Virus record (IMG/VR): IMGVR_UViG_2832410175_000003
Coordinates: 32,001 to 96,000 of that record
Length of the DNA: 64,000 bases
Source: a virus
Taxonomy: Duplodnaviria; Caudoviricetes
Strand: one strand, 5' to 3'
Part shown: positions 1 through 53,156 of the stretch, in pieces
Layout: the number at the start of each line of letters is the position of its first letter
Position numbering within the stretch: the first letter of the stretch is position 1
Made by a program: the position numbers and the translations under genes
The notes under the pieces: model-generated
Told to the model about the DNA's origin: nothing
Seen by the model: only the letters and a program-made list of their open reading frames with translations
Database searches by the model: none

Positions 1-981
1 AGCGCGTTTGTTCTCAAAGAACTTGCTCAGTCGCTCGCTAGCTGGCACATCGTTATAAACCTGTACCATCGCGCTATTCGCCCAGCCGACTACATCGGTA
101 ATATCACTCTCAGACATACCGTCACGTACCAGATTGGACACGAAAAGATGCCGCATAGAGTGCCAGTAGAACGGCTTAACCGTGAATCGGTCAATCGTCT
201 GTGCCCAGCTGTTCAAAGTCTCGGCCGAAGCTTGCTCGTAACCCTTATCGGTTTTTGTCACGAACAGCCACTCGCTGTTAATGCTGAGGTCTTTACGCTG
301 CTGTAACCAGCGTTTCAGGTACGGGTCAAATCCTGATTTTATAACGTAGCAGTCGATCATCTTAGCACCCTTGGTCAAAACCTTCTCAGGAGTGCAGTAA
401 AAATAGTCAAAAACCACGTTTTCAGGCTTAAACCAGTCCACTTTGAATCGAGTCAGTTCCGCCTTTCGGCGACCGCTGTAGACCGCCAGAGCGAGAGCAC
501 AGGCAATCTGAAACTTGCCCGCCTCGGTCAGCTTCTGCAGAATTACCTCCATCTCCTCGGTGGAGAAGACGCTCTTCTCACGGACGGGCGTATTCTGCGG
601 GTTCTCAATCTTGCGGATAATCGGACGGAAGTCCTCGTATTCATCGTCAAGAATGTTCTCGATGTAGTTTGAGAGAGAAGAAAGCGCCGCCTTTACACGG
701 CGCACACGGGCAGGGGAGTTGCCGTTCTCGTTGATAAGCCAGTTCTGGAGAGAAACAATTTCTCGCTTTTTCAAATCAATAAACGACTTATTCCCGCAGT
801 TCTGGAGCACATAAGTGAATACGATAAGCAAGTCGCTCTTGTATCCTTTAATCGTGCCTTCACTGCGTTTCAGAGAACGAAGATACTCCAGAAAATCATT
901 CATCAACTGAATGTTCTCCGGATTTATCTGCTTCGTCAGCTCCGGAGAGGTCAGCTTGTTCATCTGTGTCTGGCGTCCCAT
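1..981 (-). CDS. Tyrosine recombinase (3' end runs off window; not in supplied ORF track)
   Basis: Manual translation MGRQTQMNKLTSPEL...YSGRRKAEL...FYWHSMRH...VVGW...VQVY gives the R, HxxR, W and Y catalytic set; RBS GAAAGGAGG; start overlaps 3' end of 896..1561. Confidence 0.9.
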   Translation of the reverse strand, partial: MGRQTQMNKLTSPELTKQINPENIQLMNDFLEYLRSLKRSEGTIKGYKSDLLIVFTYVLQNCGNKSFIDLKKREIVSLQNWLINENGNSPARVRRVKAALSSLSNYIENILDDEYEDFRPIIRKIENPQNTPVREKSVFSTEEMEVILQKLTEAGKFQIACALALAVYSGRRKAELTRFKVDWFKPENVVFDYFYCTPEKVLTKGAKMIDCYVIKSGFDPYLKRWLQQRKDLSINSEWLFVTKTDKGYEQASAETLNSWAQTIDRFTVKPFYWHSMRHLFVSNLVRDGMSESDITDVVGWANSAMVQVYNDVPASERLSKFFENKRA

Positions 982-1561
982 CTTCACCCTCCTTTCCGAA
1001 AAGGCCGTAGACGAGGTTGTCCGCTGCGGAATCATCCAGTGTGCCGGACAGCAGTGCCTTCGCAGTATCAACATCAATGCCGGTAATCACATTCTTCAGA
1101 CCACTCATCAGGTCAGTCGCCGCGTCTGCGATGCGGTCAAACGGGTTGGACTGGGTCATTGCCTGCATCAGTACCAATTCGGTATCAATCGCGGCGTTAA
1201 TCTGCTTGTAACAAGCCTCTTCCAGCTCAGCCAGCTTATCCTCGCCGATAACCTCTGCAATCAGAGCATAGATATCGGTCTTATACAGCAGAGCAGCTTC
1301 AAAGCCGCCATCCAGTGAGATATGCAGGTCAGTGCAAACCTTCACGACAGCGGAGCGGAAAGCCCAGTCAACCAGGCCAAAATTGCGGCCGTCACCGTCA
1401 TCAATATGCTGGCCGACCTCGTTTACAATAGTCGCACGCATCTTCGGGGTAATCAGCGGCTTAATCTTGATTGGAATAATAGTCTCGCCGATAGTGAGAT
1501 CCTTGGTTACAGACTCTACATACGGAGTCAGAGCCGCCATAATATCAGTCTTCTTGGACAT
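896..1561 (-). CDS. Hypothetical protein in tail module
   Basis: 221-aa ORF in operon context. Confidence 0.7.
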   Translation of the reverse strand: MSKKTDIMAALTPYVESVTKDLTIGETIIPIKIKPLITPKMRATIVNEVGQHIDDGDGRNFGLVDWAFRSAVVKVCTDLHISLDGGFEAALLYKTDIYALIAEVIGEDKLAELEEACYKQINAAIDTELVLMQAMTQSNPFDRIADAATDLMSGLKNVITGIDVDTAKALLSGTLDDSAADNLVYGLFGKEGEDGTPDTDEQADLSGADEADKSGEHSVDE

Positions 1562-2946: not shown

Positions 2947-3228
2947 TCATTCCTCGGTTGATACACTTACATCCGCGTCATATACATCCTCAGCAGGACG
3001 CGAATCCTCATAGGTGATGGTCGGAATCTCTTCGACAACGGGAGTTTCTACGACCGGTTCCTTCGCCGCAGCTTCAGCGGCTTTGCGTGCGCGAACAGTG
3101 TCTACCCAGATGTTCCAGCATTCGGGCGAGCATGCTACAGCACGCCAGCTGCCGATCTGTTCACACTTCTCGCAATGGTGATACTTTTTACCGCAGACTT
3201 TGCAGACTGCGTTCAGATATTCAGCCAT
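2947..3228 (-). CDS. Small Cys-rich (Zn-binding) protein
   Basis: CKVC, CEKC, CSPEC motifs; RBS AAGGA. Confidence 0.7.
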   Translation of the reverse strand: MAEYLNAVCKVCGKKYHHCEKCEQIGSWRAVACSPECWNIWVDTVRARKAAEAAAKEPVVETPVVEEIPTITYEDSRPAEDVYDADVSVSTEE

Positions 3229-50177: not shown

Positions 50178-50604
50178 ATGGCAGAGAAGAAACCCACGTT
50201 CTACATGATGGTCGGCGTGCCGGGTTCCGGCAAAACCACCTACGCCCGCCAGATTCCGAATGCAACCGTGCTCTCCAGTGACGATATCCGTGCTGAGATC
50301 GGAGCAGACGGCGGCGACAAGAAGATGCACAAGCAGGTCTTCGATATCCTGCATGAGCGCACAAAGGAAGCACTTTCCGCTGGCAACGATGTTGTTTACG
50401 ATGCAACGAATCTGCGTCATACGCGCCGCGCCGAAAGAGTTCCTGATGATGCAGTTCATGGGGCTCTGCGAGGAAGCCTCTCGTCGGCCGCAGCCAATCA
50501 AGCTGAGAATGATTCGCTATGAAGAAGAATGGAATCAGCTTGAGCAGCAGGTCAAACGGCTCGAGTTCAGCATTGAGTTCCGCAACAACAAATTCGGAGG
50601 CTGA
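50178..50604 (+). pseudogene. Truncated polynucleotide kinase (AAA_33) joined out of frame to another gene end
   Basis: GVPGSGKTT, SSDDIR, YDATNL then loss of similarity near 50430. Confidence 0.65.
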
Positions 50605-50710: not shown

Positions 50711-51142
50711 ATGAGCGGCGAGATTTTCCAATCGTTTCCGAATTTCACCCAGAATATGTGGAATGGAAACGAACCGAACTGCAAGGGTCATGATATGGTC
50801 GGCGGCGGGCAATCGCAGAAGTGGACATTCCGATACGGCAATGCAGAAACCTTTGAAGACCGTATCCTGTGTGCCAGCTTCAGCCTAAGCCCAAAGGTAA
50901 CGATTTCAATCGTCGGTGACACGCTGAATATCTTGGATTTTCGTTACAGCGGAAAATTCGACGAATGGAGTTACTGTAATAAGCCGACCGGCCGTATTCA
51001 TGAAACATTTATGGCTGCTCACCAGCACGAACTGGAGCCTGAGCGGATAGAAAAATACCTGAACACAAACATCTCAGACTGTAAAATTTGGGATATGATT
51101 CAGGCAAGAGCAAAAGAATTGTACAACCAAAGTCAAGTTTGA
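50711..51142 (+). CDS. Hypothetical protein
   Basis: ATG overlapping the stop of a small membrane ORF. Confidence 0.55.
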   Translation: MSGEIFQSFPNFTQNMWNGNEPNCKGHDMVGGGQSQKWTFRYGNAETFEDRILCASFSLSPKVTISIVGDTLNILDFRYSGKFDEWSYCNKPTGRIHETFMAAHQHELEPERIEKYLNTNISDCKIWDMIQARAKELYNQSQV

Positions 51143-51262
51143 GAGGAGAACGAGTTTACGAAACATCTGGGAGATATCACAAAGATAAACGGCCGCGAAG
51201 TTCCGGTCGTTGATTGCGTCATCGGTGGCAGTCCTTGCCAAGATGTTAGTATCGCAGGATCT

Positions 51263-51854
51263 AAAGCGGGATTTGGTTTCCGCCTGTTCCCATGCGGGCT
51301 TGGAGTGTCGGCACACGCTGACCGCATTCTCTGATGACATCACAGGCGTGCGTCATATCAAGAATTATGCAGTCTTCGACTGGATCTCCAACGCTAGCCG
51401 CAGATACTCCGGAAGCTCCTTCTTGTTTCGTTCTGCTCTCTTCAGAATTCCCTGACACGCCTTTGCGCTCAAAAAGTATCTCGGGAGCGGATTCTCCTCC
51501 AAAATCTGCGACAAGTGCGATTCTACGGCGACTCTGGGGGACTCCCCAAAACTGTGCATTGAGTACGCGCCAAGCGATACTCCATCCGTCTCCCATGACG
51601 CATCCGGCAGTTCTCCATTTGCCCTTCGGAGGTTCAGGAATAACGGCATTTGGTTCGACGATCCTCGCGATTTCTTCGAGGACTCGTCGGAAATCTTCTC
51701 CTTTGTGGCTGCTGAAAGCTCCGACGACGTTTTCCCATACCATGTATCGAGGACTTGCTGTCCCTGAAGCTGCTTCACTGTGTTCCCTCATTTCTCTTAC
51801 AAGTCGTGTCTGTTCGAAGAAAAGAACTGATCGCTTCCCCTCAAATCCCGCTTT
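51263..51854. other. Inverted segment bounded by 13-bp IRs AAAGCGGGATTTG (51263-75) / CAAATCCCGCTTT (51842-54)
   Basis: Re-inverting restores one continuous reading frame. Confidence 0.9.
51365..51778 (-). CDS. Alternate-frame ORF nested in the MTase (M.EcoHK31I beta-like)
   Basis: ESPRVAVESHLSQILE...YFLSAKACQGILKRA...LPEYLRLAL; GTG start with GAGGGA upstream. Confidence 0.65.
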   Translation of the reverse strand: MKQLQGQQVLDTWYGKTSSELSAATKEKISDESSKKSRGSSNQMPLFLNLRRANGELPDASWETDGVSLGAYSMHSFGESPRVAVESHLSQILEENPLPRYFLSAKACQGILKRAERNKKELPEYLRLALEIQSKTA

Positions 51855-53156
51855 TGTTCCGGCCGGTTTGCGTAGGAAATGGACAGGCACACATTGCGAC
51901 ACATCTCACGCCGGATGTGTGCCAGACACTGAACTGCATGCACGACCCAATGGCGGTGATTGAAGTAAAGCCAGGCAGGGATAAATTCATTCGACGGCTG
52001 ACGCCACTTGAATGCGAAAGATTGCAGGGATTTCCGGATAACTGGACTGACATCGGAGAATGGATAGACTCAAACGGGAAGGTACATAAGGAGAGCGCAA
52101 ACACGGGGCGATACAAGGCAATGGGAAATTCGATTGCGTTGCCGCCCTGGCGATGGGTGCTTAGCAGACTGTATAAACAGTTTGACCGGCCGGCAACGAT
52201 GGCAAGCCTGTTTGATGGAGTTGGAGGTTTCCCTCTGATCTGGAGAGAGCTCGGGGGCGAAACACTGTGGGCAAGCGAAATTGAAAGCTTTCCAATAGAG
52301 GTCACCAAGAAACGATTTTCAGAATGATTTAGGAGTGAGTGTATGAGCAAGTATATTGAGCGAGAAGCAGCAATTATGAAGGCTGAAAAATATGGACTTG
52401 GATATGGCAGCGTGCTTGGACGCCATTCCGGTATTGCCGATTGTATAGCATCAGAGATTGCGACTTTGCCTGCCGCCGACGTTGTGCCGGTGGTACATGG
52501 ACGGAGGTACAGAATAATGCGAAATCCGTGCAAGGACTGTATCTACTACCACAAAGCGAGTCAAACTTGCCAGTCGAAGAAATGTGCTACGGGCAACGAC
52601 GGAAAAGTATCTTGGAATGACAGGATGTTTTGTTCTCCGCGAAAAGATGAATGGAGGCGCAGACAATGACTGAAGTGATTGGGCAGAAAACCGTTAAAAT
52701 ACGGAAAGACCATATGTGTTTTGGCTGCGGACGAAATTTTCATAAAGGAACTTTAATGGAACGCAGTTGCGTAATTGATAGCGACGGTATATGGACCTGT
52801 TATCTATGCCCCACTTGCAAAAAAATTTCCGCTTCGCTGAAATACGGCGATGAATTTGGTTTCGGTGAACTACGGGAAGAAGCTTTAAAAAAGGACGGAG
52901 GTGCGGACAATGGCTGAGTATCATGTTGGCTGTGGCGCTTTTGGCATCTACGCAGGAACACTTGAGCCAAAGAACAAATCCTTGTGGCGTAATAAGTCAG
53001 ACGTTACAGAAGAAGCGATTGAAGCTGTTCGTGACCATATGGTGATGGAACTACTTGGTGGTTTTGGTTGCTCTAAAGCGTCCTCAAGCGGATGGGCGTG
53101 GAAACTCAAAGATGGTCGAACGGTTGAATTGCGCGTGACGATCAAGGAGGAAAACA

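Follow-up and report, generated by a model that had tools for sequence, protein, structure and literature searches.

Known invertible genes and methylation switches

Invertible segments that lie within a single coding sequence have been described recently, mostly in Bacteroides chromosomes. Intragenic invertons of the premature-stop class are established (Chanin et al., PMC10028968), with inverted repeats (IRs) as short as 11 bp in thiC of Bacteroides thetaiotaomicron. DNA rearrangement also underlies heritable switching of methylation, as in the Type I hsdS "epigenetic invertons" (PMC7672463) and the gene-altering inversions in Type II restriction-modification (RM), BREX, and DISARM systems (PMC9881135), both of which swap alternative modules, and in the simple-repeat phasevarions of mod genes. 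Among phages, the Mu G segment (Gin) and the P1 C segment (Cin) are phage-encoded invertible segments that create two phage subpopulations. They alter tail fiber genes, and each relies on an adjacent small serine invertase acting on sites of approximately 26 to 34 bp.

We analyzed a 64,000-nucleotide window (bases 32001 to 96000 of a 175-kb IMG/VR provirus record; coordinates below refer to the window unless stated otherwise) in which a C5 DNA methyltransferase gene is interrupted by an inverted segment. The locus is probably an intragenic inverton of the premature-stop class in an orphan C5 methyltransferase gene that belongs to a large temperate phage infecting gut Clostridia, and the window shows the OFF state. 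The phage host belongs to the gut Clostridia, and at least one host is a Butyricicoccus isolate: Butyricicoccus sp. AM28-25 is a cultured lysogen in the ON state, with RHT78819.1 as its methylase copy.

Like the intragenic invertons of PMC10028968, the locus has short IRs inside one coding sequence, its inversion leaves the gene length unchanged and brings in an early stop, and no invertase gene is adjacent. It differs from them in that the gene is a phage DNA methyltransferase in Clostridia, in that the segment carries a whole nested gene, and in that the two states come from population-level contigs instead of reads from one culture. With the hsdS, RM, BREX, and DISARM inversions and the phasevarions it shares heritable methylation switching by DNA rearrangement, the effect on methylation being predicted in our case. 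However, those systems swap specificity modules or slip on repeats, whereas here the catalytic core of a C5 enzyme is inverted between ON and OFF, with neither a silent cassette nor a neighboring invertase. In contrast to Mu and P1, neither a small serine invertase nor a site of their type was seen. In the literature searched, we found no phage C5 methylase described as having its catalytic core switched ON and OFF by a simple inversion.

A 592-bp inversion splits the methyltransferase gene

As assembled, the gene falls into three parts. A GAGGAG Shine-Dalgarno-like hexamer (51143 to 51148, plus strand) stands directly after an upstream in-frame TGA (51140 to 51142). From 51158, the plus frame reads TKHLGDITK...GGSPCQDVSIAGSKAGF, continues through 19 meaningless codons, and stops at 51332 to 51334 (plus strand), so that the remnant in the OFF orientation comprises 58 residues counted from the ACG. 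This first part (piece B, 51158 to 51262, plus strand) has ACG at the position of the family ATG, followed by motif III (HLGDITK) and motif IV with the catalytic Cys (GGSPCQ, 51227 to 51244, plus strand), and matches positions 44 to 83 of PF00145. The part of the protein with ENV, QSRRR, and ...GTGGNQIPL lies on the minus strand: piece C (51276 to 51841), inverted in the window, carries motifs VI (ENV) and VIII (QSRRR) together with a linker and the initial part of the target-recognition region, as far as GTGGNQ. The plus strand resumes with RRLTPLECERLQGFPD (motif IX), GNSIALP, and MASLFDGVGGF...ASEIE; these pieces D and A (51855 to 52327, plus strand) hold the rest of the target-recognition region, motifs IX and X (GNSIALP), and then motifs I and II (LFDGVGGF...ASEIE), ending with the TGA at 52325 to 52327.

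An exact 13-bp IR bounds the segment, AAAGCGGGATTTG at 51263 to 51275 and its reverse complement at 51842 to 51854. It extends imperfectly to 22 nucleotides at 86% identity, with three mismatches (51254 to 51275 and 51842 to 51863). On the plus strand, the left arm codes for SKAGF and the right arm, in the ON frame, for QIPL. Both breakpoints fall exactly on the IR, delimiting 592 bp (51263 to 51854). Reverse complementing this segment in silico yields a single stop-to-stop frame of 394 codons (51143 to 52324). The first-pass annotation had described a methylase split by a 592-bp inversion between exact 13-bp IRs, and every detail of that description proved accurate. In addition, PF00145 matches the three methylase pieces colinearly in profile order, and piece C is the sole reversed match when the window is compared with five related phages.

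IRs of 12 to 13 bp within 2 kb are not rare, being present somewhere in 22 of approximately 150 related loci. Two features go beyond chance: both breakpoints coincide exactly with the IR, and 30 independent contigs, described below, show the same junctions.

The homology of the methylase module to relatives with different upstream genes begins at 51129. Fusion to the upstream ORF, by read-through or recoding of the upstream TGA, was considered and rejected: the stop and the EENE(F/Y)T lead are also present in relatives whose upstream gene is different.

The ON-state gene encodes a predicted, naturally permuted C5 methyltransferase

Motifs VI (ENV), VIII (QxRxR), IX, X (GNS), and I (FxGxGG) come together in one polypeptide only after the in silico flip. 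The ON-state gene is predicted to encode an orphan C5 DNA methyltransferase of 389 to 394 residues, with motifs III to X followed by I and II. The intact ON homologue L003 scores 132 bits against TIGR00675 (cut-off, 100.65). An AF2 model of the ON homologue L104 has a pTM of 0.67, with a confident catalytic domain and a poorly modeled stretch at residues 165 to 266; the top Foldseek matches of this model are M.HhaI, M.HaeIII, M.MpeI, DNMT1, and DRM, with a probability of 1.0.

The permuted order that had been read from the window, with motif I at the C terminus, holds both in the flipped frame and in homologues that start before KHLGDITK and end after motifs I and II. Distant homologues have M directly before KHLGDITK and close with ...ASEIE.FPI.VTK.RF. 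behind motifs I and II. This arrangement is Type B circular permutation, in which the N terminus lies between motifs II and III and motifs I and II stand behind X in one chain. Three gene orders occur in the methylase family (the window and L009 to L175): the canonical order (I...X), motifs I and II last, and IX and X first. In an earlier study, the Type B topology was the most active among engineered permutants and was stated to be absent from nature (PMC5944983). The phage genes resemble those permutants in that the native ends are fused and the new N terminus falls between motifs II and III. They differ in that Type B is here a natural family trait and common in gut phage contigs; a topology reported as absent from nature thus exists and is common.

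The start codon is unusual. ACG (51158 to 51160) follows the ribosome-binding site, as had been noted from the sequence, and stands exactly where homologues have ATG. The start position is ACG in 49 of 50 close copies, with ATG in L104 and P0140, and the NCBI call for RHT78819.1 uses a CTG three codons after the ACG. Since the gene is still under purifying selection (dN/dS of 0.146 across the methylase gene for the whole clade), initiation would have to be either non-canonical, at the ACG or at the CTG three codons later, or very weak. The prevalence of ACG counts against the switch reading, as it may bear on the expression level.

OFF copies recur on many haplotypes in public assemblies

The initial comparison covered 174 related loci from IMG/VR, JGI metagenomes, and GTDB genomes, and the middle piece of the methylase was un-inverted in all of them. 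Approximately 14 of the 174 are close (91 to 99% identity), giving 14 ON and no OFF copies in collections that were searched regardless of state. Nor was the IR more conserved in these homologues than the rest of the gene: among ten close sequences, 4 of 26 IR columns vary, compared with 15.9% for the gene, and four haplotypes have the IR shortened to 8 to 12 bp. One of two fallback explanations offered at first, a single inactivating rearrangement at microhomology in a prophage copy undergoing decay, was initially favored on the basis of the 174 un-inverted loci, the variable IR columns, and a unique 456-bp deletion nearby.

This reading was rejected once OFF contigs were found in ENA and Logan assemblies; the first searches returned no OFF copy because IMG/VR, JGI, and GTDB held none. 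The query was an ORF that exists only in the OFF state (51264 to 51902, minus strand), searched against a collection of 5.8 billion proteins. It retrieved a cluster of 46 sequences, most of them 176 or 160 residues long, whose exact end is ...GTGGNQIPL, and this ...GGNQIPL* end marks the TAG that is reached when the frame passes from the inverted segment into the left flank. At least 12 distinct OFF alleles are present among those listed, with linker polymorphisms that match ON alleles (clusters of 307 and 78 sequences). Four OFF proteins were located on 5, 17, 11, and 9 contigs.

Thirty OFF contigs, from approximately 30 ENA and Logan samples of different studies, were fetched. In all 30, piece C lies on the strand opposite to pieces B and D/A, and the junctions map to gene positions 121 to 133 and 700 to 712, at the same IR as in the window. 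Every complete OFF copy has zero internal stops once it is flipped in silico, and at least five protein alleles of the C region were found in both states. One 1,185-bp haplotype is, after flipping, identical in five ON contigs (L202 to L206) and six OFF contigs (L207 to L210, L213, and L214) from eleven different samples. Across approximately 4.9 kb of gene and flanks, L203 (ON) and L208 (OFF) differ by 1 nucleotide. In a maximum-likelihood tree of 44 rows and 25 haplotypes, the state changes at least seven times, and at least six of these changes are forced by well-supported branches.

A one-off lesion is excluded by this recurrence on many haplotypes, by the identity between ON and OFF copies, by the seven or more state changes in the tree, and by OFF copies that are intact when flipped; set against 30 further contigs with the same inversion, the 174 un-inverted loci and the nearby deletion leave it very improbable. 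The other fallback, an assembly chimera or library artefact, is more improbable still. It was considered solely since the junctions lie on a repeat, and no support for it was found. The repeat has 13 exact bases (22 with three mismatches), which is below any assembler k-mer, so that the OFF junction k-mers must exist in the reads, and the OFF junctions recur across pipelines (SPAdes and MEGAHIT assemblies in ENA, Logan contigs) in approximately 30 samples. The main proposal of the first-pass annotation, an intragenic ON/OFF phase switch, is supported by the same body of evidence: shared breakpoints on many alleles, one haplotype identical in both states, at least seven changes, and OFF copies that flipping restores.

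A further explanation accepts the recurrence and denies the program. Inversion at the 13-bp IR would then occur occasionally, independently of a recombinase or by general recombination, the loss of a costly methylase would be selected, and OFF lineages would be recent dead ends. We consider such a hotspot unlikely. It would fit the search for an invertase, which gave none, the IR that is conserved no more than its surroundings, and the stability of the state within each project; the fetched ON and OFF contigs come from non-overlapping samples, and contigs of one project share their state. Other inactivating lesions also exist in the clade (a nonsense mutation in L096, indels in L101, and the deletion variant P0130), and 830 bp upstream the window itself has lost 456 bp between 10-bp direct repeats. 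The counts speak against it: there are 46 OFF sequences versus single cases of any other lesion, and at least seven independent flips at one 13-bp site, while the chance IRs of 12 to 14 bp in 22 other family loci come without a flipped copy. Point mutations in a 1.2-kb target are far more frequent than spontaneous recombination between 13-bp repeats, which also counts against an unprogrammed origin. Finally, decay was seen in none of the OFF copies, and the 19 substitutions within small OFF-only clades are mostly synonymous (12 synonymous, 7 non-synonymous). The pattern is that of a switch whose flips outpace the accumulation of point mutations in 1.2 kb, in a gene kept under selection, and a dead-end hotspot for loss of function is unlikely. 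We infer that the segment also reverts from OFF to ON. The window's own haplotype, looked up in the form that the window encodes, was found in 12 contigs, all OFF.

The state found correlates with the length of the repeat. The IR is 13 or 14 bp long in 31 of 31 OFF copies, the window included, and the four haplotypes with an IR of 8, 10, or 12 bp were found only in the ON state. A natural variant with a CAA-to-CAG change in the right arm was likewise seen only as ON. Among the listed alleles, the 78-member ON cluster, in which a GCG-to-ATG change breaks the left IR arm, has no OFF counterpart. The dependence of flipping on the IR is a correlation, with a one-sided Fisher test on haplotypes giving approximately 0.05.

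Candidate recombinases

The record encodes three tyrosine recombinases, at window positions 1 to 1077 (minus strand) and 42107 to 42934 (plus strand) and at record position 114101, and two large serine recombinases elsewhere. The two tyrosine recombinases inside the window, which the first-pass annotation had named as possible drivers, are candidates. None of the five is adjacent to the methylase or classed as an invertase, and no small Hin/Gin-type invertase was found in the 175-kb record. The 275-residue tyrosine recombinase at 42107 to 42934, which adjoins a RepA_N gene and is conserved in five related phages, is a candidate invertase only: it is generic, scoring under every NCBIfam cut-off and 34 bits to a FimB/E-type invertase model.

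In relatives, the methylase module adjoins different neighbor genes, without a recombinase. Given these varied, recombinase-free neighborhoods, an invertase would have to work from a distant locus or be supplied by the host. We infer that the flip is catalyzed by a site-specific recombinase, which would be a tyrosine recombinase of the phage or an invertase of the host. A search of the record for a second copy of the IR core yielded none with fewer than two mismatches.

A conserved nested frame lies within the invertible segment

The invertible segment contains, in its entirety, an ORF of 137 codons (GTG...TAA; 51365 to 51778, minus strand as assembled) that is read in the +1 frame relative to the methylase. 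Conservation of this ORF extends to 86 family loci, it has 2,689 homologues, and its end motif has the form S.LSQILE..P.KYYLS.KAC.GILRRA..RGK.LP. In its second half, dN/dS is 0.19 in its own frame and the methylase frame is relaxed; the first half shows the reverse. Pfam and NCBIfam gave no significant match to the nested ORF, and there was one weak PHROG match.

In longer homologues, the nested-ORF domain forms the N terminus of proteins that carry motifs IX and X. This is reminiscent of the split alpha/beta C5 methyltransferase M.AquI (cited in PMC5944983), as if of a beta subunit with a gene that overlaps the alpha gene in another frame. The window's clade differs from M.AquI in that the main frame continues to motifs IX, X, and I and the nested ORF ends after approximately 137 codons. 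The other methylase of the record (L002, 1105 to 2250) has a similar alternate-frame ORF.

Proposed mechanism and role of the switch

Recombination within the 13-bp IR core would invert 592 bp that hold motifs VI to VIII, part of the recognition region, and the whole nested gene. The OFF orientation would yield the 58-residue stump and no active enzyme, and the ON orientation would yield the permuted C5 methyltransferase (motifs III to X, then I and II). Flipping could serve as bet-hedging, with methylated phage or lysogen DNA facing methylation-blocked restriction and unmethylated DNA facing methylation-dependent restriction, or it could tune host gene expression.

A fuller version of this proposal is that the phage toggles its own epigenetic mark as a form of bet-hedging. 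The core of a natural Type B methylase would be flipped together with its nested gene, and lysogens would release both methylated and unmethylated virions, fit for hosts with methylation-sensitive and methylation-dependent restriction, respectively. A recombinase acting from a distance would use a 13- to 22-bp site of a new type. We put this forward tentatively, as possible but somewhat doubtful in its entirety.

The locus offers a well-supported example of an intragenic inverton in a phage of gut Clostridia, with a DNA methyltransferase, a gene central to phage-host restriction conflicts, as its target. It lends itself to experiments, given public sequencing runs in each state, the cultured lysogen, and natural variants with a shortened IR found only in the ON state. 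Among these runs are SRR25701115, SRR32341693, ERR14205891, and SRR21969285 for OFF and SRR27281036, SRR17827939, and ERR12541589 for ON. Because it combines inversion, permutation, and a conserved overlapping gene, the locus may also be useful as a compact system for studying gene-level plasticity of several kinds.

Other observations at and near the locus

Relative to L003, L005, L007, and L100, the window has a deletion of 456 bp at 50425 to 50434, with 10-bp direct repeats (GCCGCGCCGA) at its ends. An AAA_33 kinase gene (50178 to 50522) and the next small gene are cut short by this deletion, which is missing from most other OFF contigs of the window's methylase haplotype. Lesions of the methylase gene in single copies comprise the nonsense mutation R284* in L096, indels in the low-coverage contig L101, and a deletion in P0130 that joins ...GGNQI to EEFPIAVTKRRFG.

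In a distant subgroup of the family, a conserved 4-nucleotide TAGN insert (TAGA or TAGC) separates the Cys codon of motif IV from the Gln codon that follows (CCT TGT TAGN CAG). It occurs in L010, L026 to L028, L033 to L037, L060, and L064, near position 3000 of each. The main frame meets TAG at the insert and the +1 frame continues, which looks like a programmed +1 shift or quadruplet reading. ARAGORN predicts a tRNA with the 4-base anticodon tcta in the window (47086 to 47161, plus strand), adjoining tRNA-Gly, tRNA-Met, and tRNA-Lys. A link between this tRNA and the TAGN insert was rejected, as BLAST of five insert-carrying phage records returned no homologue of it.

The region from 40863 to 45749 brings together a RepA_N replication initiator, the 275-residue tyrosine recombinase, and a protein with an MrpR-type core-binding domain. 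This cluster suggests plasmid-like maintenance or SPbeta-like regulation of a large phage (approximately 150 to 175 kb).
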